NCBI GenBank assembly: GCA_963729715.1
Contig: CAVSPA010000006.1
Coordinates: 438,528 to 502,527 of the forward strand
DNA: 64,000 nt
Source of the DNA: an uncultured delta proteobacterium
GTDB lineage: Bacteria > Desulfobacterota > Syntrophia > Syntrophales > UBA2185
Direction: 5' to 3'
Shown: positions 40,978 through 58,616 of the stretch, piece after piece
Numbering within the stretch: position 1 is the first letter of the stretch
Layout of the letters: each line of letters begins with the position of its first letter
The notes under the pieces: model-generated
The model's input: the letters and a program-made list of their open reading frames with translations, nothing else
Database searches by the model: none
Told to the model about the DNA's origin: nothing
Position numbers and translations under genes: made by a program

Positions 40978-41277
40978 CCTGCGAAAGGACAGTGAAAACC
41001 AGTGTACTGATCTGGAAAAGATTCTCTAAGAGTTGCAATTCTCTTTCATCAAATCGGGCGGATGAGAGGTGCCCACTGTATACCGGCTCCCCATTAAAGA
41101 TGAAAATGGGCACTGGAAGGAAATGCTTGTCTTGCAGTGAAGTTGATTATTGCTTCCACCTCCTACTTATCATTTGTGTTAATCATGAAGAGTAACCGAC
41201 ATTTTTTGAGGGTGGGCAAAGCTATTGTGGATGTCGCAGCAGTCCAGACAATGGCATCAATGCGACTTGAAAGAAGG

Positions 41278-41460
41278 CTACCAATCAATTCCGTGACTTC
41301 TTAAAAAATCTTGAGACGCTTTACTACCTAATCTTGAAGCTATTCTAAAATCTTCTATCGCCTGATTGCGGTTGCCAAGGCTGTTATAAGCAATTCCTCG
41401 GTTCTTATAGGCCTCTGCATACTTCGGGTTAATATCGATGGCTCTGTTGAAATCCCCAAT
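41278..41460 (-). pseudogene. C-terminal fragment of a TPR protein (no start codon)
   Basis: Manual translation: GDFNRAIDINPKYAEAYKNRGIAYNSLGNRNQAIEDFRIASRLGSKASQDFLRSHGIDW*. Confidence 0.75.
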
Positions 41461-41771
41461 CGAAATGACACTGCTGATGAGCTCGGCATTGATATAGAAA
41501 AGAGGTAATTATGAAGGCCGATCGACTAGAACGAATGTACAGGATGAGGCTTTCAGGCGCCCGCCAGATTTAACTGATATCTTCTTTGTCGCGGGAGTCA
41601 GCACATTCATTCATGTATTATTGATTTGTCTTTTATGTATATTAAGAAAATTTTCACATTTATTCAAGGAAAAAGTCTTTGTATGTCATGACAAGAGTAT
41701 GTGGTGGCAACGGAGTTCGGTTTCCGCGGTTCGTTTAAGGCGTGCATTGAGGAAAGGCTTAGAAATATAGA

Positions 41772-41827
41772 AAGGGATTTCGCAAAACACGAAATCCCTT
41801 GAATTGTGGCTCCCCGAGCGGGACTCT
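41772..41827 (-). repeat. att scar 1: hairpin plus degenerate tRNA-Asn 3' end (outer island boundary)
   Basis: AAGGGATTTCG..CGAAATCCCTT then TGGCTCCCCGAGCGGGACTC versus tRNA TGGCTCCCCGGCGCGGACTC. Confidence 0.8.
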
Positions 41828-42373
41828 AAGCAAAACCAGATCGGGATCAGGCATGTCTATAAGTTCATCATGATACCAATGCAAAGACACAATATAAGAA
41901 CGGCGTATTCGTATATATCAGAGAAGTTCCTAGCTGCAATACATATTCCCTTCATTTTTATCAGAAAGGGTTTCCCATTTTAAAAGTCTCGATAGATGTA
42001 TAGCAGGGAGGCACTTGATGCGAAGAAATTTATCCGGGATCGTTACAGAGGCAAAAAGATCTTGGCCTCGCAGATGTTTCCCTGTTGATTTGGTATGGGA
42101 AATGCACATCTCCTTGATGAGACTAAAAGTAATTATTGAATAGGCAATAATGTTCTAATTCAGGCAGATGACGGGAAAAAATTGCTGAGAGCGTTTGCCT
42201 GTCAGTGTCGATAGAAAATGCCTCCATTATGAAATTATAGGCGTTGTCCGGATTGAATTTACAAAACGTGATTGTCAAATATCTCACGGCCCTGTATGAA
42301 TTTATGAAAATAGGGCACTGATATTATTTTGCGACTTTGCCTCCTTGTACAGCTTTACTGGCACAAGGCCAAT

Positions 42374-43879
42374 ATGCAGGTATCAAATATGAATTCTTTC
42401 CAGCAGATTTTGAAGGTGGCGTCTGAACTTCATAGCGCCGGACGCCATCAAGAGGCAGAAACGATATCCCGCCTTTTAATAAAGATCAATCCACATGATG
42501 GCCAGTTGCTGTTCATGCTGGGAATGGTTTTGCAACGAACAGGCCGGAGCCAGGAAGCCCTGAAATATTTGGAACAAGCGGCGGAGCTTCAGCCGCAATC
42601 GGCCCCGATTTTCGACGGACTCGGGTTCGTTCATCAAAGTCTACAGGATTATGCGCGTGCGGTGGAAAATCATGCAAAGGCAGTCGAACTGGGACTGCAG
42701 ACCGCCGGCACTTTTTACAGCATGGGCTATGCCTGTTACAAACTCGGTGATTTGGAACAGGCGGTTTTACTTTTTCAAAAGGCCGTGGAGTTGAATCCAC
42801 ATTATGCGGCAAACTGGCATAATCTCGCTAAATGTCTGAAGGATTCACACCGGCTGGAGGAATCCCTCGTGGCCTACGATCGCGCATTGGCGGTCGATCC
42901 TAATTGTTTTCAGGCACATTATGGCCGTGCCATTTCCCTGCTGACGGGGGGCCGATTGCAGGAGGGATTTCGCGAACATAATAAATGGCGCAACCATGGC
43001 CGCACGCCCCGCCAGTTTTCCCAGCCAGCCTGGAATGGGGAACCTATTCCCAGCAAAACATTATTCCTGCATGCGGAACAGGGATTTGGCGATGCGATTC
43101 AAACCGTGCGATTTGTCCGGCAGGCACGTGAACGCGCGGCGAATGTCATTCTCGAATGCCGGCCGGAACTGAAGACGTTGTTCTCCAGCTCCGGTTGTGC
43201 CGATGTCGTCATTGCTTACGGTGAAGCGATTCCGCCATTCGATTGTTTTACTTCGTTATTAAGTTTGCCTGGCATTCTGGGCACCACAATGCATACGATT
43301 CCCAATGAAACGCCGTATTTGAAAGTAGCCACGTGCGCGCATTTGCCGCCGGCACCGTCCGGGCATTTAAAGGTAGGGCTGGCCTGGGCGGGCAATCCGT
43401 CACATCACAATGATGCCGCGCGTTCGATTCGCTTGGAGGAACTCGCTCCGCTTTTCCAAACGGCCGATGCCACTTTTTATAGCCTGCAAGTGCCGGTACC
43501 CGCTCGCGATGAAGTGTGCTTTCGATCTTTGGGCAAACTGTTGGATGTGAGCGAACGTTTAAAAGATTTTCTGGACACGGCGGCGGCAATTGTGGCGATG
43601 GATTTGGTCATTGCAGTTGACACTGCCGTTGCTCATCTTGCCGGTGCACTCGCTAAACCGACCTGGACCTTAATCGCTTATTCGCCGGACTGGCGGTGGC
43701 TTATGGATCGTCCAGATACGCCCTGGTATCCAACCATGCGTTTGTTTCGGCAGGCTCAAAGAGGTCAGTGGCAACCGGTCATTCTGCAAGTGGTTGAAGC
43801 ATTGGGTCATTTCACGGAAGGCGTTACATCTTACCCGTCCTCCGTTGGTGAAGAGAGTGAAGGGGAGATAAATATTTAG
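42374..43879 (+). CDS. TPR-repeat protein with C-terminal GT9-like glycosyltransferase domain
   Basis: TPRs, AEQGFGDAIQ, GLAWAGNP, DLVIAVDTAVAHLAGAL, DWRW, PWYPTMRLFRQ. Confidence 0.9.
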   Translation: MQVSNMNSFQQILKVASELHSAGRHQEAETISRLLIKINPHDGQLLFMLGMVLQRTGRSQEALKYLEQAAELQPQSAPIFDGLGFVHQSLQDYARAVENHAKAVELGLQTAGTFYSMGYACYKLGDLEQAVLLFQKAVELNPHYAANWHNLAKCLKDSHRLEESLVAYDRALAVDPNCFQAHYGRAISLLTGGRLQEGFREHNKWRNHGRTPRQFSQPAWNGEPIPSKTLFLHAEQGFGDAIQTVRFVRQARERAANVILECRPELKTLFSSSGCADVVIAYGEAIPPFDCFTSLLSLPGILGTTMHTIPNETPYLKVATCAHLPPAPSGHLKVGLAWAGNPSHHNDAARSIRLEELAPLFQTADATFYSLQVPVPARDEVCFRSLGKLLDVSERLKDFLDTAAAIVAMDLVIAVDTAVAHLAGALAKPTWTLIAYSPDWRWLMDRPDTPWYPTMRLFRQAQRGQWQPVILQVVEALGHFTEGVTSYPSSVGEESEGEINI

Positions 43880-43905
43880 ATTTTAATTCTTTGAAAAATA
43901 AAATA

Positions 43906-44017
43906 TGACGAAATCGTAAAAAGGCAAAATCTCGAAAATCAGTCTTGTAACATAATGATTTTATTAATACCTATTTTCGAAAAATGCCGGGTTGGTGACT
44001 TTTTTACGAGGCCGCCA
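43906..44017. mobile_element. MITE-like element (~112 bp)
   Basis: Terminal IRs TGACGAAATCGTAAAAA / TTTTTACGAGGCCGCCA; internal TCGAAAAT..ATTTTCGA. Confidence 0.65.
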
Positions 44018-44093
44018 AGTATATTCTGAGAAATACTTTTAAAATACCAGATTGATATATTAACCGTTGGGCAGGGGAAAGAAGGACTACATT

Positions 44094-44691
44094 ATGATAA
44101 GGCTGCAGAATCTATATGATGCAGAGGAAATATTTCGTTTGGTAGAAAAGAACTGATCGCGACTCCGAATGGTTTCCTTGGCTTGATTCCACCAAGACGG
44201 CCGCTGATGTCAGGTTACTCATCACTAAGGCATTGATTGGACACGCAGCGGGAAACCGTTTTGATAACGTGATCATTACGGACAGTCAGATCGTTGGTCT
44301 TGTCGTGCTCGACTGGATAAATCATGGCAATAAATCTGCCGGTGTCAAATACTGGATTGATATCGATGCGAGAGGTAAGGGTATTCTAACTTGCGCTGTG
44401 GTTGATCTCATAGAAATAGCGTTTGGCTCTATCGGCATGCATCGAATTGAAATCCGTGCTGCAACAGGCAATGCGAAAAGCTGCGCTGTTGCCATGCGGT
44501 TAGGCATGCGACTTGAAGGGACAATCAAGGATGCTGAGTGGCTATATGACCATTATGTTGATCACAATATATATGCCGTAACCAAACCTGAGTGGGAATT
44601 GCCGAATCGGGTAGCCCGGGGGTTTTTCTCCCCCAGGGTAAGTGGTCGCACACCTTGCAGTGCGCAGCCCTCTGTGATTTTAGAAAAATAA
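44094..44691 (+). pseudogene. RimJ/RimL-type GNAT acetyltransferase, disrupted
   Basis: MIRLQNLYDAEEIFRLVEKN* then frameshift to EWFPWL..; YWI..RGKGI, HRIEIRAATGNAKS..RLG. Confidence 0.8.
44606..44651 (-). mobile_element. Group II intron 3'-end (domain VI) remnant
   Basis: Minus strand CCTGGGGGAGAAAAACCCCCGGGCTACCCGAT: DVI-like hairpin and class C-like terminus. Confidence 0.55.
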
Positions 44692-44771
44692 GGCGTAGTG
44701 CCAGCAAAACAAGCGTACGACGGTAATCTCTGAAAACCAATCTTTTTATAACCCATAAAGGAGGTTTTGTT

Positions 44772-45320
44772 ATGGCAATCGATGCAGTATCTTCCAGTTC
44801 CAATTTATACTCAACAAATGCAACGCAGAACAATTTTCAGCAGATACGCAAGCTTTTGGAGCAGCTGGGACAGGCGTTGCAATCAGGTGATCTGAGTGGA
44901 GCTCAAAACACCTTTTCTTCATTGCAGCAGTTGCTCCCCAGTTCTTCTGCGAATCAGGCGCAAACCACACAGCAAACTAACCAAAACACTTTCATGGCCG
45001 ATTTGAATGCACTCGGTCAAGCGCTCCAATCGGGTGACCTGTCGAAGGCGCAGGAGGCGTTTTCAAAACTGCAGCAGGATATGCAGGCGGCTCATAAAGG
45101 GTATCACCACCACAAAGCGGATAATTCACAGAATTCCATCTCCAGTTCAAACCAGACAAATGGAATGCAAGCCAATTTTCAGCAGATGAGCACGTATTTT
45201 AATCAGTTGGGTCAGGCGTTGCAATCAGGTGATCTGAGTGGAGCTCAGAAGGCCTTTGCTTCTTTGCAGCAATTGCTGCCCAGTTCTTCTGAGAACACGA
45301 ACCTCAATATAGTAGCTTGA
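44772..45320 (+). CDS. Q/S-rich protein with three LGQALQSGDLSxAQ repeats
   Basis: AAGGAGG RBS; internal repeats visible in both protein and DNA. Confidence 0.85.
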   Translation: MAIDAVSSSSNLYSTNATQNNFQQIRKLLEQLGQALQSGDLSGAQNTFSSLQQLLPSSSANQAQTTQQTNQNTFMADLNALGQALQSGDLSKAQEAFSKLQQDMQAAHKGYHHHKADNSQNSISSSNQTNGMQANFQQMSTYFNQLGQALQSGDLSGAQKAFASLQQLLPSSSENTNLNIVA

Positions 45321-45707
45321 TGTCATTGGACAGCTAAAGACGAACTCCTGCGCCTGAGAGCCTGTTATCCTTTTTCTTTGCGTGACAGAAGATCTGATAC
45401 ATTGCAGGGGCAACAAGATGATTACAATTTGCAATGATGACTATTTTCCGTAAATGTCTGATCGTAGACTCCAGTCGATAGGGATTGTCGTTTGCAAGGC
45501 TGTATGTAGGAAGGCATCTCCGGAGGAAGCAAGTCGGATTCTATATGAGCAGAAAATGAACTGTCACACCTTTGCATGTTTCTATCCGTTATCAATGAAC
45601 TAGTCCCGTTATTGGAACTGACGAATTGAATTTGAAAGCTTGGATCTCACCTTGCATGCAGTTCTCATTGAGAAAAAGAAGAATATTTTGTTTTTTGGCA
45701 TCACTTA

Positions 45708-46827
45708 CCAATCAGAGCATAAAATAGATTGCAATATTCATTTTTTCATGCTATTATTTCGGCATGAAAATCAAAGACGCACGTTCTCTTCCCGCCTTTG
45801 CCCAGGAGGACCTTCGAATGAAGGCCGTCAAGGCGGTACAGGAAGGGAAAAAGCAGGTTGAAGTCGCCGAATTGTTCGGCGTAACGAGACAAGCGGTCGG
45901 CAGATGGGTCACGTCGTATCGAGAAGGAGGAAGCCGCCGACTCAAGGCCCGCCGTCAAGGGAGACCGCCGGGACGGTCGTTGGAGCCTTGGCAGGCGGCC
46001 CAGACCGTTCGGGCCATCACCGACCGGCACCCAGATCAATTGAAGCTGCCCTTTTACCTTTGGACGCGGGAGGCCGTGGCTGAGCTCATTTATGAGCGCT
46101 ACGGCCTCCTCTTGTCGATTTGGACGGTGGGTCGCTACCTGAGGGATTGGGGGTTTCCGCCTCAGAAGCCGTTGCACCGTGCCTTTGAGAAGGACCCGCA
46201 GGCGGTTAGCCGTTGGCTTGAGGAGGACTATCCCGCCATCCGGGCGCAAGCCAAGAAAGAAAAGGCCCAGATTTACTGGGGAGACGAGATGGGGATGCGT
46301 TCCGACCATCAAACCGGCACCACCTATGGCCGCAAGGGGGAGCCCCCCGTGATTCCAGGCACGGGGCAGCGGGTTCGCTGCAACATGATCACGGCCATCA
46401 CCAACCGAGGCAAGCTCTATTTCATGGTGTATCGAAAAGGATTTTCGGCCAAGGTGTTCATCGCCTTTCTCCGGCGACTGGTGCGGCAGGTCGACGGGAC
46501 GTTGTTTATGATCGTTGATGGGCATCCGGTGCATCGCTCGAAGGAAGCGAAAAATTGGGTGGTGAAGCAAAAGAGACGGATCCGCCTGTTTTTCCTGCCC
46601 GGCTACAGTCCGGAACTGAATCCCGATGAGATGTTGAATCAGGACGTCAAATCCAATGCGGTGGGCCGAAAACGCCGCCGCAACCAGGACGAGATGATGC
46701 ACACTGTCCGAGGTTTTCTTCGCAGCCGTCAGAAACGCCCAACGCAGGTTAAAAAATACTTTCAGGAAAAACATGTGCAATATGCCACTCGCTGATTAAA
46801 ATGGAACCTATTTTTCGCTCCCGGTAA
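45708..46827 (+). mobile_element. IS630-family element (1120 bp) with TA target duplication
   Basis: TA at 45706-45707 and 46828-46829; imperfect IRs; homologous empty site at 54332-54346. Confidence 0.92.
45764..46795 (+). CDS. IS630-family transposase
   Basis: HTH, WGDEMG, IVDGHPVH, LPGYSPELNPDE. Confidence 0.95.
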   Translation: MKIKDARSLPAFAQEDLRMKAVKAVQEGKKQVEVAELFGVTRQAVGRWVTSYREGGSRRLKARRQGRPPGRSLEPWQAAQTVRAITDRHPDQLKLPFYLWTREAVAELIYERYGLLLSIWTVGRYLRDWGFPPQKPLHRAFEKDPQAVSRWLEEDYPAIRAQAKKEKAQIYWGDEMGMRSDHQTGTTYGRKGEPPVIPGTGQRVRCNMITAITNRGKLYFMVYRKGFSAKVFIAFLRRLVRQVDGTLFMIVDGHPVHRSKEAKNWVVKQKRRIRLFFLPGYSPELNPDEMLNQDVKSNAVGRKRRRNQDEMMHTVRGFLRSRQKRPTQVKKYFQEKHVQYATR

Positions 46828-46907
46828 TAACATCCATGAATCGACGATTGTTTTATTCTTCAAGATAACAAAAGCCGGGAGAGGATGGGGACTAGATTTT
46901 AAACTGA

Positions 46908-46967
46908 CAAGGGGTTAACCGTTCATTAGCTAACCCCTTGATTGTGTGTGGCTCGCCGGGACGTACA
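46908..46967 (-). repeat. att scar 2: hairpin plus degenerate tRNA-Asn 3' end
   Basis: CAAGGGGTTA..TAACCCCTTG then TGGCTCGCCGGGACGTACA. Confidence 0.8.
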
Positions 46968-47054
46968 GTTGTAAAAATTTCACCTCCACAGTCCTATTTC
47001 AATGGACACGTGCACTTAGAGCTAATTGAGCAGTTCACCTTGTATAATCAAAAT

Positions 47055-49622
<2,568 letters not shown>

Positions 49623-49752
49623 GAATCGGGCTGTTAAAATACTACTTGACGTGAAACACAGTTGCTACCAACAAACAGTGGACACTTGCTAACTAAATTG
49701 TAGATTAACAAAAGAAGGGTGTATGGCTGTGCTCCATAAATGAGCAAATAAC

Positions 49753-50247
49753 CTATTTGGCGGAACGCACCGGGAGCGCCCGGCTGTAGTATTCGATAGA
49801 CTGGTGACTCCAGTTCTGTTTTCCAGAGTAGAAATCGAAGTTGGCGGCATCAGAACCGCGTTTTTCTGAAGCCCATACCCAAGCACACGTAAGATGAATC
49901 AATTCCGTTAAATCAACACTATATCCACAGTCGGACTTATAATTCTTAGTCCCGTTATACAACTTCGCTAGCTCATCCTGATATGGCATCCGCCAATCCG
50001 TATAACCGCCCCCGCGATAATTCTCGCAATACATCTTGGCACTTTGCCAGTTAATATTCGCCCCGTTGTCCCTAGACGCCCACATCAGGTTCGTACTCGT
50101 GTCCAGAACCGTCCCATTGTCATAGGCGATAAAACGACCGTCCTTGCCAGTCTCCCTTGCTGTGGCATACTTTGCCGTAATAAAGGCTCCTATTAAAATA
50201 GCCACCACCATTGCCGTAATGAAGAAACCTTTTCTCAACTCAGTCAT
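49753..50247 (-). CDS. Exported Lcl/DUF1566-domain protein
   Basis: Signal/TM segment, DNGTVLDTSTNLMW, GGYTDWRMP, terminal LPVR. Confidence 0.85.
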   Translation of the reverse strand: MTELRKGFFITAMVVAILIGAFITAKYATARETGKDGRFIAYDNGTVLDTSTNLMWASRDNGANINWQSAKMYCENYRGGGYTDWRMPYQDELAKLYNGTKNYKSDCGYSVDLTELIHLTCAWVWASEKRGSDAANFDFYSGKQNWSHQSIEYYSRALPVRSAK

Positions 50248-50385
50248 AAGTTAAACTTCCCCTCACAAAGCAATTATCCAAGTTTCAATCATGCATATCA
50301 TAGTTATCGAGGAATTAACATCAATGATTTGGACTAGAAGTCTTGCATCTTTGCCGAGATTGACGGTTTGTGTATAGCAGGAAGG

Positions 50386-50558
50386 AAGTAATACCCGAGT
50401 TGTTATTGTCTATTGGATCGGGATTTGGCCGGAGAATTTTCCAATATAAAAGTTCTTACAGGCGTACGTGTTGGGGTCTAATGATAACAACAATGCTTAT
50501 GATATGAATTTTTGAGCTGTAAGATATAGGACCGAAATTACGAGGATAATTACAAAAT
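50386..50558. repeat. 173-bp direct repeat, copy 1
   Basis: Matches 51824-51996 except 2 substitutions. Confidence 0.95.
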
Positions 50559-50613
50559 AAAAGGGTCCAATTCTCAAGATTGGAACCCTTATTTTGGCTC
50601 CAAGGGACGTACA
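50553..50613 (-). repeat. att scar 3: hairpin plus degenerate tRNA-Asn 3' end
   Basis: CAAAATAAAAGGGTCCAAT..ATTGGAACCCTTATTTTG then TGGCTCCAAGGGACGTACA. Confidence 0.7.
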
Positions 50614-50801
50614 ACAGCAAGAACTTTTCATCTACTGTATTATTCCAACATAAAAGAGTACTTAGCGCAAATTGGGCGATACCCCTACAAACAAATGATT
50701 TTGCATAGTTGGAGTGACTGAAGATTATCAATTGAAATGTTTTAACGATGCCCATCTGGCGCGTAAGCGAGCATAGCAAAAATCGTTAAAACTATAGCAA
50801 C

Positions 50802-51614
50802 CTATGGAAATTTCTTATTTGTAATCGGTGCCTTTATTACGGGGCTCAGGGTGCAGTTTACCTGATATGATGCCGCCGGCATGGGGAAGGCCATTTGACC
50901 ATTAACGACAAGGGATATCGTGCCCGAATGCGGCGGATCTTTGTATTGACCGGAGCTCTGCCCACCCACAATAAAACCCATCGGACCGACTTCCTGGATG
51001 ACCGGGGTACTAGGGGTCAACTTGCCCCCCGGGGCGGTCTGACCGTCAGACAGAAGCCACGAATAGTTCACAGTTGTGCCCGGGACAAAGAAGGCCCGTA
51101 TCCTGGCATATGCTAAAACGGTTTTCGGGCAGGCCCCTGAATAACTCTCAGGGTCGGTTCTTACCGAAGCGAAAATACCGTTGCTGCCCTTAATAAGGAC
51201 AGTAAACTCAACAGGGGGGCTCCAGTCGCTCATAGCGGTCGGCGGCGGCATCATGTTGTTGGGCTGCCCAAGCGTACACCTGGCCCGGGCGTATGCCCTC
51301 CATTGGCCGGGCCGGTTTTCGGTTATCGAACCTTGAGTCCACGTGTCCTCCACAGCAAGATTGGCCACCTGCGTGACATTGTCCGTCGTGTAAGGTGGAT
51401 CGGGACTGAACAAGTTGACATAGATGTTCTTGAATTCAAATTTGAAATCGATCGTGACCCCTTTTGCATGATTAACCTGAAGGTAGATCTGGTCCCCGGT
51501 CCAAAAAACATGATTGTCATTTATGGTGATCAGCGGCATAGGGCAATCGGCAGATGCTGATCCAGCAATAATACCGATGAAAATGAAAACAAAAATCAGG
51601 CTCTTGCGTATCAT
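50802..51614 (-). CDS. Secreted hypothetical protein (Pro-rich, Ig-like beta character)
   Basis: GGAGGAGG RBS, signal peptide ending ASA-DC, SDWSPPVEFTV. Confidence 0.8.
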   Translation of the reverse strand: MIRKSLIFVFIFIGIIAGSASADCPMPLITINDNHVFWTGDQIYLQVNHAKGVTIDFKFEFKNIYVNLFSPDPPYTTDNVTQVANLAVEDTWTQGSITENRPGQWRAYARARCTLGQPNNMMPPPTAMSDWSPPVEFTVLIKGSNGIFASVRTDPESYSGACPKTVLAYARIRAFFVPGTTVNYSWLLSDGQTAPGGKLTPSTPVIQEVGPMGFIVGGQSSGQYKDPPHSGTISLVVNGQMAFPMPAASYQVNCTLSPVIKAPITNKKFP

Positions 51615-51823
51615 GGTATAACCTCCTCCCCCTTTACATGAAACACAAAACCCCGCACTCTATTGAGAAACGGGGTTTCAATAATTAGTCCATACTACCC
51701 TCGCACAAGGTTGAAGGGTTTATGAATCATAATCTCTGACGTTACATATGTATTGTTTGACTATCACAATTCCCATGTGAAATCTACAATGAAAATTAAA
51801 GATGGCAGTTTGTTGACTTCAGC

Positions 51824-51996
51824 AAGTAATACCCGAGTTGTTATTGTCTATTGGATCGGGATTTGGCCGGAGAATTTTCCAATATAAAAGTTCTTACAGG
51901 CGTACGTGTTGGGGTCTAATGATAACAACAATGCTTATGATATGAATTTTTGAGCTGTAAGATATAGGACCGAAATTACAAGGATAATTCCAAAAT
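51824..51996. repeat. 173-bp direct repeat, copy 2
   Basis: Near-identical to 50386-50558. Confidence 0.95.
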
Positions 51997-52425
51997 GTTT
52001 TAGGGCACAATTTTTCCTTTTTAATGATTCCAGTGCGGGCGAAAAATCCAAGAACAACATATAGGTTCGAACTGCTAAATCGGTGAAAATAAGTTTTGCT
52101 GAAGCTGTGGGCATAGAAAAATATGCTTCTTTAGCTTAAGCGTAGGTACCTAAGATACATAGGTTCCTTGTTGGATATGCCTTTATTGTATGGATACTCG
52201 ACTTTAAATCCTTACAGTGTTCCATTCGACTAATTCGCTGAATGCCAGTTGAAATGCGCACTACCTGAACTGCCTATTTTTCCGTCAAAGGAAAGTGTGA
52301 ATGCCTTCCTTGTTTTTGGTAGCTTCCATCAGACTGCCAACTTTCAAATGGAAGTCATGAAATATTTATTGTAAAAGAAATGCGTACGGGAATAATAGCT
52401 GATTAATTAAAAGGGAGGCCGTTCA

Positions 52426-52884
52426 ATGAAAACGAGAATCATTCTTTCTTGGACAATCTTTGCGTGTTTAGTTTTATCATTTGTAACTGCCTCTCCTGCA
52501 AAAGCGGCAAACACCACGGAGCAGATTCTAACACAGATAGACGATATTCTTAAGGCAAACCCCTTGAAGGCAACTGATAAGATCCAAGTGATCAATGTAG
52601 TTCAGGACGATACAGTTACCATCAATGTTGTAAGACGGGTTGAAGGGGCAGGGATTAAGCCTCATGTTCACAAAACCCATGATGAAATGCTCTATGTCAT
52701 CAAGGGATCGGGGCAGATGCTTATTAACGGGAAATGGATTGATGTGAAAGCGGGGACTTTTCATTTCAACCCTATGAATAAAGTCCACGCCACCAGAAAT
52801 ACCGGCAAAGAAGATCTAGTGGTACTTGTGATATTCACCCCAGCATTGAAAGAGCCTGATCGGTATTTTGTGGATGAGAAATGA
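52426..52884 (+). CDS. Periplasmic cupin-domain protein
   Basis: Signal peptide; PHVHKTHDEMLYVIKGSG ... PMNKVH. Confidence 0.9.
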   Translation: MKTRIILSWTIFACLVLSFVTASPAKAANTTEQILTQIDDILKANPLKATDKIQVINVVQDDTVTINVVRRVEGAGIKPHVHKTHDEMLYVIKGSGQMLINGKWIDVKAGTFHFNPMNKVHATRNTGKEDLVVLVIFTPALKEPDRYFVDEK

Positions 52885-53337
52885 ACCGTGAAGAAGACCT
52901 GCTTTCAGTACATATTTTGTGAGAGGCTTGTAAGCTAAATCTGGAAAGGCAGGGTTTCAACTTGGCTCTGCCTTTTCTTATCGCACATTTCTACCAATAA
53001 TCATTATCTTTTATAGATAACTTGGAGTAAGCATTAGTAGATGTTAGAAATTTACAGCACAACACGAATTTGATCTGATGACGTTTGCGAATTACGGGAT
53101 GGATGGTGTGATATAAACGAAATCGGTTACGCTTGCTGCTTTCAATAAATAATTAATAACCTCTCGGGACAGTCAGGGGCGTTGATCAGTGTTCTCGCGT
53201 TGCGAGCATCCCTAAATCAAAACCGTAATTTCCTGTTCATTCGCTCCCGCTGGTCCAACATATAAATCCGTTACAAAGATATGGCTGTTTTTCCGGGGAA
53301 TCGTTGTCTATGACCGTGTAGGAAACAAAAAATTGTA

Positions 53338-53366
53338 TTGACTGATGGTAACGTTTAGGATACTAT
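53338..53366 (+). promoter_or_regulatory. Sigma70 promoter of the TA operon
   Basis: TTGACT-17 nt-TACTAT; imperfect palindrome GTAAC..GATAC in the spacer. Confidence 0.7.
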
Positions 53367-53373
53367 ATAATAT

Positions 53374-53736
53374 ATGGGCAACAAATTATTTGAAATTGAA
53401 GAATTTGAAACAAATGGACGATCTCCATTCGGAATATGGTTTGATAGACTAGATTCCGTACCAGCAGCAAAAATTGTAATTGCTTTGACTCGCCTTAAAA
53501 CAGGACAGCATTCAAATGTTAGATCTGTTGGTAGCGGAGTAGCGGAATATAAAATTGATTTTGGTCCCGGGTACCGGATCTATTTTGGCATTGATGGAGA
53601 TAGATTGATAATTCTGCTCTGCGGAGGAGATAAAAAAACACAGAAGAAGGATATTGAGAAGGCAAAACAATATTGGCAGGATTACAAAGATAGAAAGAAG
53701 AAGGAGGTTAAACATGGCTCTTACAAGAAAGTTTAA
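53374..53736 (+). CDS. Type II toxin, RelE/ParE/HigB-like addiction module killer
   Basis: GRSPF..WF, EYKIDFGPGYRIYF, LLCGGDKKTQ..DI. Confidence 0.92.
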   Translation: MGNKLFEIEEFETNGRSPFGIWFDRLDSVPAAKIVIALTRLKTGQHSNVRSVGSGVAEYKIDFGPGYRIYFGIDGDRLIILLCGGDKKTQKKDIEKAKQYWQDYKDRKKKEVKHGSYKKV

Positions 53737-54028
53737 AGATACTGTACAGAGAAGAGCAGCCCGTGATCCGGAATTTCGACATGCACTGCTTGTTGAAGCT
53801 ATTAATGAGCTGCTTGCTGGAGATTATGATATCGCAAAATCAATTCTCCGTGATTATATTAATGCGACAATAACATTTCCAGTGTTGGCTCAAGAACTTA
53901 ATAAATCGAGCAAGAGCATTCACAGAATGCTTGGTCCAAACGGTAATCCTCGAATGGACAGTATTGCTGGAATCCTGAAAGTATTGCAGAGCAAGGAATG
54001 TATTAAACTCCACACAAATACGATGTAA
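53714..54028 (+). CDS. HTH antitoxin (addiction module antidote)
   Basis: AGGAGG RBS; MALTRKF..RAARDPEF, LRDYINAT, SIHRMLGPNGNP; overlaps the toxin gene. Confidence 0.9.
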   Translation: MALTRKFKDTVQRRAARDPEFRHALLVEAINELLAGDYDIAKSILRDYINATITFPVLAQELNKSSKSIHRMLGPNGNPRMDSIAGILKVLQSKECIKLHTNTM

Positions 54029-54170
54029 ACTTTTGACCAAGAAGAATATCACTAACCGGCTGCCAGCCTTAGCGTACAATTTTTCCTGAATTCTGCGTCC
54101 TCCCCTACGTGCACAGTCGAGGTCATCTCGTTGAATGCGAGATAAACATGCTACTCCTTGACAGATTATT

Positions 54171-54460
54171 TATATGAACAGAAAATGAACTGTCCTGTCT
54201 TTGCATATTTCTACCCGTTAGAAATGAACTATTCCCGTTATTGTAACTGGCGACTTAAATTTGAGAATTTGAACCTTCCCTTGCGTGCAGTTCTCTCATT
54301 GATAAAAGGGAAGGGATATGTTGCTTTTTGACATCACTTAACATCCATGAATCTACGCTTTCTTTATTCTTTCAAGATAAAAAAAGTGGGGAGAGGATGG
54401 GGAATAGATTTTAAACTGACAAGGGGTTAACTATTCATCAGCTAACCCCTTGATTATGGG
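54171..54460 (+). repeat. att-proximal conserved segment, copy A (intact)
   Basis: Homologous to 45542-45707 + 46830-46948; ends in hairpin 54420-54452. Confidence 0.9.
54420..54452 (-). terminator. Hairpin terminator downstream of tRNA-Asn
   Basis: CAAGGGGTTA / TAACCCCTTG 10-bp stem, 8 nt after CCA. Confidence 0.7.
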
Positions 54461-54536
54461 TGGCTCCCCGGCGCGGACTCGAACCACGGACCCGATGGTT
54501 AACAGCCATCTGCTCTACCGACTGAGCTACCGGGGA
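54461..54536 (-). tRNA. tRNA-Asn(GTT)
   Basis: TCCCCGGTAGCTCAGTCGGTAGAGCAGATGGCTGTTAACCATCGGGTCCGTGGTTCGAGTCCGCGCCGGGGAGCCA; cloverleaf with CCA. Confidence 0.98.
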
Positions 54537-54811
54537 ATAGTCGATTTCATTGTTTTCAATATTATAAGATAATCCGAAAGTCAACAATCGTCTTATACGA
54601 TTTGCAGTTTCATGAAAAAGTCTTGATAAATCCCTTTAAAGTGGATATTAAAAGTTAATCTGAGTTGCGCCTTATAATACAAGACAATCTTCTTGTCAAT
54701 AAATGTTAGTGAGAGCCTGATGACTCTTACGCAATATCACGGACGGGAAGGAAATCTTTCAAATTTTTCATTACACTTATCATTCAATATCAAGAGAAGG
54801 GGTACGGAAAA

Positions 54812-54970
54812 ATGGAAAAGTATGTTTGCAGTATCTGCGGATATGTGTACGACCCAGCAGCGGGCGATAAGGAGGGCAACATCCCTCCCGGCGTCCCGTT
54901 TGATAAACTTCCCGACGAATGGGTATGTCCCATATGCGGCGCCGGCAAGGAAGAGTTTAACCCTGATTAA
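54812..54970 (+). CDS. Rubredoxin (52 aa, missing from the ORF track)
   Basis: [35 protein letters not shown]. Confidence 0.96.
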
Positions 54971-55093
54971 CGAGAAGTCGATATGGAATAGACCTTCGGG
55001 AATTCGTGCTGAATGGATTAGCGTCTCTTACGGGCTTCCTGGTCGCATGTTTATTAGCTGGACGCGATCAATCACGAAGAAAGGTTCTTAGGG

Positions 55094-56006: not shown

Positions 56007-58616
56007 ATGAATTTAACCCCCGCCATGAGGCAGTACCTGGAAATCAAGGAGCAGCATAAGGACTGTATCCTTTTTTTCAGGATGGGGGATTTCTACGAGA
56101 TGTTTTTTGAGGATGCAATTACCGCTTCCAAAATTCTGGAGATTACTCTCACGTCTCGGAACAGGGGAAAGGAAGACAGTATTCCTCTCTGCGGCATACC
56201 CTACCATGCAGCGTCAACGTATATCGCAAAGCTTATCGAGAAGGGTTTCAAAGTAGCAATCTGTGAGCAGACCGAAGATCCAAGAGAAGCAAAAGGCGTT
56301 GTGAAAAGAGACGTGGTACGCATCATCACACCTGCTCTCTTTGTAAACGAAGATAACACGAACATCAAGGAAAATGCATTCCTGATGGCTCTTGCGCTCC
56401 GGGACGACAAGTTCGGCCTTGCTTTCCTCGACATATCTACAGGGGAATTTCTGGTCACGGAGTCTCAGAACAGGGATATTTTCATAGCGGAAATAAGCGG
56501 TCTCGATTTTCGCGAAGTCATCATCGAGGAGGACTTTCGTGAAAAAGCTGTTGTAAAGATGCTGTCGCAGAAGAATCCCGAGCCCAGAATAAATTTTTTC
56601 ACGGCGGAATATTTTGATTATGATGCCGCTTGCGACCGCTTAAGAGAATACTTTTCTGAAGAGCTCCTGACTAAGGAAGGCATATTAAGACATCCGGCTA
56701 CGATAGCCGCAGCTGGCGCCATCCTCCGCTACGTGGAAGAAACGCAGAAGGACCACCCGGGACACATTAACGCCATTCATTGGTACGAGACCGACAGCTA
56801 CCTTGTCATGGATGAAATAGCCAAGCGAAATCTTGAATTATTTGCAACCATAACCGAAAACAGAAAGGAAGGGTCGCTCTTTCATATCCTCGACGAGACA
56901 ATCACATCCATGGGCACAAGGAGGCTCCGGTGGTGGCTGAACTATCCTCTCGTGGATGCGGAAAAGATCAGAGAAAGACTGGCGGCGGTATCTGAAATTA
57001 AGGAGCACCATATACTGAGAGGGGATTTGAGGGATGCCCTCTCCAAAGTCTATGACTTGGAAAGGCTGGCAAGCAGGGTTTCTATGGGTGTCGCCAATGG
57101 CCGCGACCTGATTGCCCTGAAAACATCCCTGAATGCGCTCCCGCAAATAAGGGCATTCATTTGGGGCCTTGATTCCGCACTGCTCACGTCCGTCTATGCC
57201 GGAATTGATGAGATGCCGGATATCTGTGCCGCCATTGAGCGAGCCATTGTCGAAGACCCTCCGATGACAATCAGGGAAGGTGGAGTCATCAAGGAGGGTT
57301 ATGATCAGGACCTCGACGAGCTGATTTCCGCGAGCAGAGACGGAAAAAAGTGGATCGCCGCCCTTGAACAGAGGGAGAGAAAGCGAACGGGGATCAATTC
57401 TCTGAAAGTGGGATTTAACAGTGTCTTCGGATATTATATTGAAGTCACCAAGGCGAATACGGATCTCGTACCCCAGGATTACATCCGGAAACAGACCCTC
57501 ATAAATGCGGAGCGGTATATCAATGAGGAGCTGAAAGGATACGAGCATACCGTTCTTACCGCGGAGGACCGCCGGAAGGAGCGGGAATATGATCTCTTCG
57601 TCCGGATCAGGGGAGAGATATCAAAGGAGATAAAACGGATTCAGACCACGGCTTCGCATATTGCCGACCTCGACGGCCTTGCATCTCTCGCTGAGACGGC
57701 GGAGCGCTACAACTACTGCTGTCCCGTTATCGATTGTGAAGACAGGATTGAAATAAAGGACGGCAGGCATCCTGTCGTGGAAAGGATGCCGCTGCCGGAC
57801 GGGTTTGTGCCCAATGATGTCCGTCTCGATCTCGATGAAAACCGCCTGCTCATTATCACCGGTCCGAATATGGCGGGAAAATCGACATACATCAGGCAGA
57901 TCGCCCTCATCGTGATCCTCGCCCAGACGGGAAGTTTTGTGCCCGCGCAGGAGGCGCGTATCGGTGTTGTCGACCGCGTGTTTACGCGTATCGGGGCGGC
58001 GGACAGCTTGGCGAAAGGACAGAGCACCTTCATGATCGAGATGAATGAAGTGGCGAATATCCTGAAGAATGCCACAAGGAGAAGCCTGATCATCCTCGAT
58101 GAGGTTGGCAGGGGCACCAGTACATTTGACGGGCTCAGCATTGCCTGGGCAACGGCGGAATACATTCACGATGCGAAACTCATTGGGGCGCGCACGCTCT
58201 TTGCGACCCATTATCACCAGTTGACTGACCTCGCCTTGACGAAGCAAGGAGTAAAGAATTTCAATATTGCCGTCAAGGAGTGGGGAGACAGGATCATCTT
58301 TCTCAGAAGGATCGTGGAAGGCGGAACAAATCGGAGCTACGGCATTCAGGTGGCGAGAATAGCGGGAGTTCCCGAGGAAGTCATTGTCAGGGCCAGAGAG
58401 ATTTTGAATAACCTGGAAAAGGGTGAATTCGATGAGGTAGGCATGCCCAAGATCGCCCGGGGCAGGAGATCGCCTCCGAAGGATAAGGCGCAGTTAAGCC
58501 TCTTTATGGACAGTGAGGAAATAATTGCAAATGAGCTGAAGTCGCTGGATATCCCGAATATGACCCCCCTTGAGGCCCTGCAGAAGCTCAGTTCCTGGAA
58601 GGACAAACTCTTATAA
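56007..58616 (+). CDS. mutS: DNA mismatch repair protein MutS
   Basis: [39 protein letters not shown]. Confidence 0.97.

Follow-up and report, generated by a model that had tools for sequence, protein, structure and literature searches.

Based on a comparison of a 64-kb stretch of DNA from an uncultured delta proteobacterium of the Syntrophales (the window, G000:C6:438528-502527, in which G000 is this genome; plain coordinates below are positions in the window) with related genomes, we propose that the island behind its tRNA-Asn(gtt) gene probably consists of three or four stacked modules that lack a recombinase, the uncertainty in number arising from an apparent fusion in the third unit. The junctions of these modules, here called scars, are, as judged by alignment with relatives, hybrid attachment (att) sites for large serine recombinases (LSRs), enzymes whose genes extend into the 3' end of tRNA-Asn. 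Each scar combines a terminator hairpin, a TGGCTC core, the att half-site P' (the host half-site is called B) and a tail frame, and two LSR types, A and B, are represented. This tail is an alternative C-terminal tail of the LSR that is conserved and, by codon comparison, appears to be under purifying selection.

Scars and tails of the tRNA-Asn island

The only tRNA that ARAGORN predicted in the window is the minus-strand tRNA-Asn(gtt) at 54461-54536, and no other Asn tRNA is found among the 48 tRNA calls of the assembly. TGGCTC starts on the plus strand at 41807, 46949, 50595 and 54461, and a stem-loop stands in front of each (-16.9, -19.8, -12.0 and -20.4 kcal/mol, respectively, folded on the tRNA strand), as an earlier note made from the sequence of this DNA had described. 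The units between these sites measure 5142, 3646 and 3866 bp, or approximately 4.0, 1.0 and 3.9 kb without the insertion sequences (ISs), which are an IS630 and an IS110/IS256 pair. These lengths agree with the earlier note, as do the different cargo of each unit according to Pfam and the sharing of non-coding blocks, of which there are three pairs: 45542-45710 with 54171-54343 (80%), 46828-46959 with 54339-54471 (89%) and 50383-50558 with 51821-51996 (98%). Without the ISs the GC content of the island is 44%, compared to 48-50% in the flanks. The same note had seen no recombinase gene in the island, and indeed all 26 genomic PF00589 matches lie away from the island, as do the single PF07508 and single PF00239 matches. 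No transfer genes were identified among the Pfam families of the cargo, and an Rfam search of 41000-55000 returned nothing but the tRNA.

A loose filter for a hairpin followed by TGGCTC was passed by 26 of the 1349 genomic TGGCTC sites, and three of these 26 lie within the 12.7 kb of the island, where 0.09 were expected; the site at 50595 did not pass. With a stricter scar pattern two matches were obtained in this genome, both in the island, and none with the reversed control. The stricter pattern was also found in 3 of 22 genomes of the family and in none of 400 other genomes of the phylum, the reversed controls again giving no match. The genome-collection records in which this scar recurs bear the titles Syntrophales, Syntrophaceae or deltaproteobacterium, with one Patescibacteria in addition.

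To call the scars copies of the tRNA 3' end, as had been done, is an overstatement, as the unbroken identity to the tRNA is 10, 6 and 7 bases at 41807, 46949 and 50595, respectively, and the remainder is element sequence. What follows the core is the inverted partner of the arm that the LSR genes place beside the tRNA. The LSR arms of the relatives G006 and G001 agree with scar 41807 in 15 and 14 positions out of 22, respectively, and the arms of four split LSRs match 46949 at 14-17/22 and 50595 at 10-13/22, with the symmetry axis in TGGCTC. Controls gave 8-11/22; the G006 and G001 arms nevertheless reached 12-13 on 50595. The crossover was mapped between core bases 1 and 7, because the position-1 A of one hairpin end is found both on a scar (L055) and on a tRNA (L074), and position 7 changes along with P'. 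As explanations of the scars, damaged tRNA fragments, attC sites and structured RNA were also considered, and these were ruled out by the short tRNA identity, the symmetry with the LSR arms and the tail data. Additionally, a type-A P' is joined to the tRNA-Glu core TGGCGTCC in two relatives (G003:C11:85761, L171:5390 reversed; G015:C10:6650, L172). This core differs from the Asn scar in two central bases, which suggests retargeting through a changed central dinucleotide.

Read from TGG, the peptide of the type-B scars is conserved (WLxGTYxxKNFSSTxLFQxKRxLxAN). We compared the C-terminal ends of 181 LSR homologues, and a recognisable W-L/R/Y motif near the end was present in 107; 80 of them run on as a tRNA-antisense peptide and 27 end otherwise. 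The scar tail forms the C-terminus of five homologues (P0021, P0023, P0030, P0042 and P0150), all among the 27, and P0150 ends in the subtype found in this window. None of the 181 ends in the type-A tail of 41807. Over codons 12-24, which lie outside the search pattern, 14 tails gave a pN/pS of 0.41, compared to 1.57 and 1.65 in the other forward frames and 0.60-1.35 in the reverse frames, and eight tails of a second subtype gave 0.37, compared to 0.82 and 0.68 in the other forward frames; all these values are uncorrected pairwise counts over related sequences and not a formal test. The stop at codon 27 is kept in 13 of the 14 tails (TGA in 7, TAA in 6), the exception being scar 50595. Elsewhere in this genome, away from any Asn tRNA, there are two decayed recombinase tails that have neither hairpin nor core, at G000:C5:430631 and C3:57158. 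Other alternative tails (WLPRRNPVHNP.., WLPxCNxFxN.., WLPLVDALR.., WLPFIxxYRT..) end the homologues P0003, P0009, P0012, P0022, P0053, P0054, P0063 and P0135, and one such type occurs as a hairpin scar in G032 (L142:4343); arrays with other scar types would therefore escape our search pattern.

The features of the island are as follows.

41771-41806, minus strand: original host terminator hairpin of tRNA-Asn (B half-site), pushed outward by the first insertion, left edge of the island; same or near-identical hairpin directly on tRNA-Asn in G004, G002 and G005
41807-42002, plus strand: scar 1, TGGCTC core, then the type-A half-site P' with the frame of a recombinase tail (WLPERD..., 58 codons ending at 41983); inverted match to the G006/G001 LSR arm with its centre between T and C; 84-85% to the tRNA-Glu-type scar in G003 over 200 bp
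42329-43879, plus strand: unit 1 cargo, TPR and GT9 glycosyltransferase (Pfam); 91% scar-less copies in G008:C3 and G003:C1
44094-44691, plus strand: unit 1 cargo, GNAT acetyltransferase pseudogene (Pfam), 5' part broken by a stop and a frame change; unbroken versions of 194 and 182 amino acids (aa) in G008 and G003
44772-45320, plus strand: unit 1 cargo, Gln/Ser-rich repeat protein (open reading frame); paralogues on C5 and C6 of this genome
45524-46948, no strand: tRNA-side end of unit 1, with R1 block, direct-repeat arms and terminator hairpin, split by the IS630; 80-89% to 54171-54471; end type adjoins many different tRNAs
45705-46827, plus strand: IS630-family element, transposase 45764-46795, DDE_3 and HTH (Pfam); ends approximate, from the uninterrupted R1 copy
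46949-47029, plus strand: scar 2, core followed by a type-B P' half-site that codes for a recombinase tail of 26 aa; the arms of four split LSRs match it in inverted form, 14-17/22; same tail type ends LSR P0150
47033-49672, plus strand: IS110 element interrupted by IS256 (48205-49623, minus strand) (Pfam); near-identical copies elsewhere in the genome
49753-50247, minus strand: unit 2 cargo, secreted Lcl_C-domain protein (PF07603); several genomic paralogues
50378-50594, no strand: tRNA-side end of unit 2, R2 block with decayed inverted P' copy at about 50448-50481, then hairpin; same block ends a unit with different cargo in G008 and L082
50595-50675, plus strand: scar 3, core, type-B P' and tail, with TGG at the usual codon-27 stop; inverted match to split-LSR arms, 10-13/22
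50802-51614, minus strand: unit 3 cargo, 270-aa predicted secreted protein without Pfam family; 84% scar-less copy at C2:10822-11861 of this genome
51641-51827, minus strand: conserved leader with a terminator-like hairpin at its end; matched 18 times by BLAST in the genome, this copy included, no Rfam family
51821-51996, no strand: second R2 block, cut off before its hairpin; 98% to 50383-50558
52426-52884, plus strand: unit 3 cargo, cupin with predicted signal peptide (Pfam); block 52309-52930 scar-less in G008, G004 and G003
53374-54028, plus strand: unit 3 cargo, Gp49/RelE-like gene and overlapping partner, likely a toxin-antitoxin pair; PF05973 on the first reading frame, no Pfam family on the second; 95% copy beside tRNA-Glu in G018
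54171-54460, no strand: tRNA-side end of unit 3, with R1 block, arms and hairpin, the present terminator of tRNA-Asn; 85-90% to the end of the G003 unit abutting a tRNA-Glu fragment
54461-54536, minus strand: tRNA-Asn(gtt) (ARAGORN), the target; crossover probably in the last six bases, according to the crossover mapping

The truncated R2 block at 51821-51996 probably marks a lost junction, in which case unit 3 would likely be two fused units. The R2 end holds a decayed inverted P' site and tail approximately 115 bp before the hairpin (50448-50481, 51886-51919, L082:6997-7027 and L074 near 9887), which could mark an old inverted insertion. The IS110 starts 3 bp past the stop codon of the scar-2 tail (47029-47033), and the tail is intact. 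Many genomic matches of the leader at 51641-51827 (about 180 bp) precede predicted secreted proteins, and this family is possibly one of regulatory RNAs or promoters. Outside the island, G000:C16:91573-92063 at a contig end is a 99% copy of the start of a mutS-like gene (window about 56113-56600) and may represent assembly redundancy.

Units and recombinases in relatives

The earlier note had expected variation between relatives to break at the scars and cognate recombinase genes to abut tRNA-Asn elsewhere, and both expectations were borne out, the genes being those of LSRs. A precise empty site was found in 3 of 10 genomes of the same genus (G002, G004 and G005), where the leftmost hairpin of the window stands directly on tRNA-Asn; the island therefore begins exactly at 41807. 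In G008 the site is occupied by four units with different cargo, which are 886, 1191, 2482 and 987 bp long, in G003 by an unrelated large element, and in G007, G009 and G010 other hairpin ends are present. The tRNA-Asn(gtt) gene is itself split after position 35 by inserts of 248-545 bp in G007, G017, G005 and G015 (L044:118-392, L046:154-698, L034:18984-19527 and L045:269-516). By Rfam these inserts are group I introns in the two examined, and the other two share the same 3' end.

LSR genes end inside tRNA-Asn in G006, G001 (a remnant) and G017 (same family), and cognate LSRs that overlap att at the 3' end of their target are present in the relatives G006, G001, G017, G141, G102, G140 and others, not in this window. 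In the autonomous elements of relatives the LSR gene runs into the 3' end of tRNA-Asn, where it ends in a short tRNA-antisense peptide. The other att half (P') stays at the far end of such an element, together with a second C-terminal tail of the LSR gene. For instance, in G141 an LSR remnant reads into a tail, and this tail marks the far end of a complete element of 27.3 kb, whose tRNA-Asn end carries XRE, MerR-HTH, AAA ATPase and split LSR genes. One LSR family is naturally split into a catalytic gene of about 175 aa and a recombinase/zinc-ribbon gene of about 367 aa (L046:692-2327; L090:16879-18496), and many LSR homologues of 366-368 aa have no PF00239. Relatives of P0023 were found in 7 of 339 genomes of the class, all seven ending in the Asn-antisense peptide, and there was none in G000.

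With tblastn and family searches a cognate LSR was not found in this genome, the assembly of which comprises 19 contigs. The searches returned only a 243-aa frame at C6:127.5-128.3k with no in-frame catalytic domain and a resolvase match with an internal stop on C3. In viral contigs none of 18 pattern matches was confirmed as an LSR relative and no scar was found, so these contigs gave no sign of a phage helper.

Scar scans yielded 26 metagenome and 10 genome loci. After removal of duplicates there were 35 direct type-B scars; 32 of them stand behind a stable hairpin and only one behind an LSR remnant. An LSR or tyrosine-integrase match is missing in 16 of 17 complete scar-bounded units (three here, four in G008 and one each in L047, L055, L062, L063, L067, L077, L080, L081, G003:C11 and G141), a count that excludes every unit truncated at a contig end as well as L059 and L079, both of which end at tRNA-Lys. 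The tRNA-side ends of units consist of direct-repeat arms and a hairpin with no LSR P arm. The units are thus not simply decayed LSR elements, because those would keep the P arm beside the tRNA. This type of hairpin end adjoins Lys, Ala, Gln, Phe, Thr, Pro, Glu and Asn tRNAs, and we infer that it is the generic end of tyrosine-type islands. Type-B scars that open long restriction- or defence-like gene stretches (by eye from the starts of the reading frames) were seen in L057, L060 and L082, and these are probably far ends of larger autonomous elements.

Origin and movement of the units

A unit of 880 bp, whose one gene encodes a 180-aa secreted protein without a Pfam family, is shared by L074, L077 and L062 with 95-96% identity over its full length. 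Beyond this unit the identity falls to 0.51-0.64 on the right and 0.64-0.78 on the left (random 0.42-0.56), with a further left block shared by L077 and L062 at 0.86, and the host flank genes of two of the carriers (G008 and G003) are 89.7% identical. As the unit is alike in three sources and identity breaks at the scars, such units can probably move. Additionally, a 13.8-kb unit in G003:C11 has both ends as unit 1 (84-85% over 200 bp and 85-90% over 300 bp, background beyond) around other cargo and with a tRNA-Glu core; G015 also has a Glu-type scar.

We favour, with modest confidence, a reading of the sequences as accretion with mobilisation in cis, in which modules would be delivered, and made movable again, by a visiting recombinase-carrying element that docks beside them. 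A module would arise through a deletion or recombination event that fuses the P' end with the generic hairpin end of a different tRNA island, and both recombinases would be lost and the cargo reshuffled in the process. A unit of P', cargo and hairpin that is followed by the tRNA would offer a fresh attB, and a helper could integrate between the module hairpin and the tRNA. If the helper were to excise via the distal scar of the module, the attP of the circle would consist of helper P and unit P', and the module tail would complete the recombinase gene of the helper. The circle could then integrate in a new host, from which the helper might later leave alone, with the same unit left behind. All steps would be ordinary attP x attB and attL x attR reactions. 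Under this model tails would stay intact in recombinase-less units because the unit tail completes the helper enzyme in the circle. The model matches the accretion of cis-mobilizable elements (CIMEs) (PMC5704250; this and the other cited papers are drawn on in excerpt). In a bolder and rather doubtful form, the system would be the serine-recombinase counterpart of an integron on the acceptor end of a tRNA. Here each cassette would carry its own copy of the tail together with a fresh terminator and tRNA end, joining in the circle would complete the helper enzyme and license integration, and a standard pair of ends would be reloaded with cargo and retargeted between tRNA-Asn and tRNA-Glu by two central bases.

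Several observations weigh against accretion and cis-mobilisation. No unit of this window was found whole elsewhere. Relatives and this genome carry scar-less versions of the secreted gene (84%), the TPR-GT9 and GNAT block (91%), the toxin-antitoxin block (95%) and the cupin block, with identity breaking inside units. There is decay in the form of the GNAT pseudogene, three ISs, one read-through of a tail stop and the truncated R2 copy. The variation between L059 and L079 begins at the tail end, 80 bp inside the unit, and the symmetry of the type-B arms is centred on one base, not between two. Autonomous parents could account for the selection on tails, and the three copies of the 880-bp unit are too alike for a selection test (pS 0.067, pN 0.046). 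Neither a module-plus-helper composite nor a circle junction was seen. Joints at scars numbered 0 among 15 of the 33 listed (four runs, assembled contigs, low depth over the non-IS parts), and in one assembled contig the two homologous R1 blocks are joined (45676 with 54311), possibly through the assembly itself.

Such observations partly fit decay in place, which is a possible, if on balance unlikely, account. Serine- and tyrosine-type islands would have entered alternately at tRNA-Asn, deletions would have removed the recombinases, and the chimeric leftovers would be immobile fossils. This is consistent with the generic tRNA-island ends in R1, the fragments of tyrosine integrase just after P' in L059 and L053, which likewise speak against mobile units, the long tRNA-Asn fragment in L082, the mosaic and decaying cargo of the window, the two displaced tails in this genome and the lack of an intact helper in this assembly. 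Yet decay would require repeated deletions that spared P', tail and hairpin and left no recombinase remnant in 16 complete units, a count that short contigs bias towards small, recombinase-less units. It also explains poorly why the copies of the 880-bp unit resemble each other more than their hosts do, with identity breaking at either scar, and why the same pair of ends surrounds different cargo at tRNA-Asn and tRNA-Glu. The suggestion in the earlier note of deletion remnants thus holds for part of the window (mosaic cargo, broken GNAT, lost junction near 52000) and not as the whole account. Its other suggestion, capture of non-autonomous modules by a recombinase acting in trans, stands as to site-specific stacking at tRNA-Asn, non-autonomous modules and a recombinase from elsewhere, and is less likely as to pure-trans recombination of scar x scar. 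Module capture and deletion remnants are probably stages of one process.

Integron-like shuffling in trans, in which an LSR from elsewhere would recombine scar x scar or scar x tRNA and move single modules, as CcrAB does for recombinase-less staphylococcal cassette chromosome (SCC) cassettes, appears improbable. Overexpressed CcrAB excises adjacent cassettes independently and in all combinations (10.1101/2023.03.17.533233), short units are regularly built in G008, L055 and L067, and the split of an LSR family into catalytic and DNA-binding genes could loosen directionality. Against these points, two like-oriented B-P' sites should not recombine productively, going by the rules for serine integrases (PMC11722253), no intact LSR was found in this assembly, and shuffling in trans gives no reason for the tail staying in frame. 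We consider it highly improbable that the units are tyrosine-integrase islands of the tycheposon or Islander type with damaged tRNA fragments, or an integron. Displaced tRNA fragments with small deletions have been described (PMC4383910), PF00589 is matched 26 times in the genome and the R1 ends seem to resemble tyrosine-island ends; the scar-tRNA identity is just 6-10 bases, the sequence beyond the scars is the inverted LSR-arm partner with a natural LSR C-terminus, and the island has no integrase gene. This possibility is largely refuted by the LSR C-termini, the tail data and the arm symmetry.

Known systems and significance

An integron is an array of small recombinase-less gene units added at one end. 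The island is likewise a recombinase-less array of small units; unlike an integron it has no intI, its junctions are serine att hybrids and not attC sites (judged by eye, without an attC model), and its cargo lies on both strands with its own leaders. The likeness to tycheposons or integrons seen in the earlier note did not hold, as the enzymes are LSRs, not tyrosine integrases, and the scars are att half-sites with a recombinase tail.

Serine integrases use an attP of about 50 bp and an attB of 40 bp to form hybrid attL and attR sites, and the reversal needs a directionality factor (PMC11722253). In the classical enzymes the asymmetric central dinucleotide is all that distinguishes attL from attR, and for excision an L site is paired with an R site (PMC11722253). 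The closest likeness is with the ssrA islands of Dehalococcoides, of which 15 of 31 have no integration module (PMC3146451). They are tandem islands at the 3' end of a stable-RNA gene, bounded by repeats of the target end, with a recombinase gene overlapping att, and tandem units of this kind, some without an integration module, are present here as well. Their serine recombinase DsiB has about 540 aa; dsiB overlaps attL, its stop is unclear and its completion in the circle was proposed (PMC3146451). In the excerpted account of these islands (PMC3146451) several differences are apparent. The target here is tRNA-Asn (tRNA-Glu in two relatives), there tmRNA; the crossover here is in the last six bases with a core of 6-7 bp, there in the T-loop with a 20-bp direct repeat. 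The second tail is conserved here, whereas the DsiB ends are divergent. The helper module, as in G141, comprises XRE, MerR-HTH, AAA ATPase and split LSR, in contrast to a six-gene module with DsiA, RecF-like, ParB and Mom, and the units here have a terminator-type end. By analogy the system works like the Dehalococcoides ssrA islands, and it lies outside them in target, repeat and module.

CIMEs are recombinase-less tandem elements at the 3' end of a tRNA, where a later element integrates adjacently and joint transfer of CIME tandems is possible (PMC5704250). The island similarly has no integration or transfer genes. According to the same source CIMEs retain parental attL and attR, whereas the units here have P' only and a target-like hairpin end, and the enzyme here is a serine recombinase with a gene-spanning att site. 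SCC composites also combine LSRs with a tandem of cassettes, some recombinase-less, and short att cores; their target is rlmH with 18-nt sites and excision of single cassettes was demonstrated, whereas the present system has a tRNA target and is known from sequence alone (10.1101/2023.03.17.533233). As in tycheposons and Islander-type islands, successive tRNA integrations push older elements outward (10.1101/2020.12.28.424599, PMC4383910). In contrast, 910 of 937 Prochlorococcus elements use tyrosine recombinases and have partial tRNAs of about 40 nt (10.1101/2020.12.28.424599), and the island has neither an on-board integrase nor such a partial tRNA at its far end. The strict definitions of CIME, tycheposon, SCC and integron do not cover the island. 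A literature search of titles and abstracts, with subscription journals thinly covered and supplements outside its reach, returned no paper on this system.

Serine integrases that use the last bases of a tRNA gene are the case that the excerpted Islander account describes as not known for serine recombinases (PMC4383910), and such islands would be overlooked by search tools that depend on a tyrosine integrase and a long fragment of the tRNA. The question raised by DsiB becomes testable, namely whether the exchange of the C-terminal tail at integration switches a recombinase whose gene spans att. The enzymes and their matched att halves are candidate integration tools, because they target a conserved tRNA end without breaking the tRNA. 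If the modules are shuttled, they represent a route of gene capture in anaerobic deltaproteobacteria, and if mobilisation by a helper in cis proves true, visiting elements would carry packets of genes to other species.

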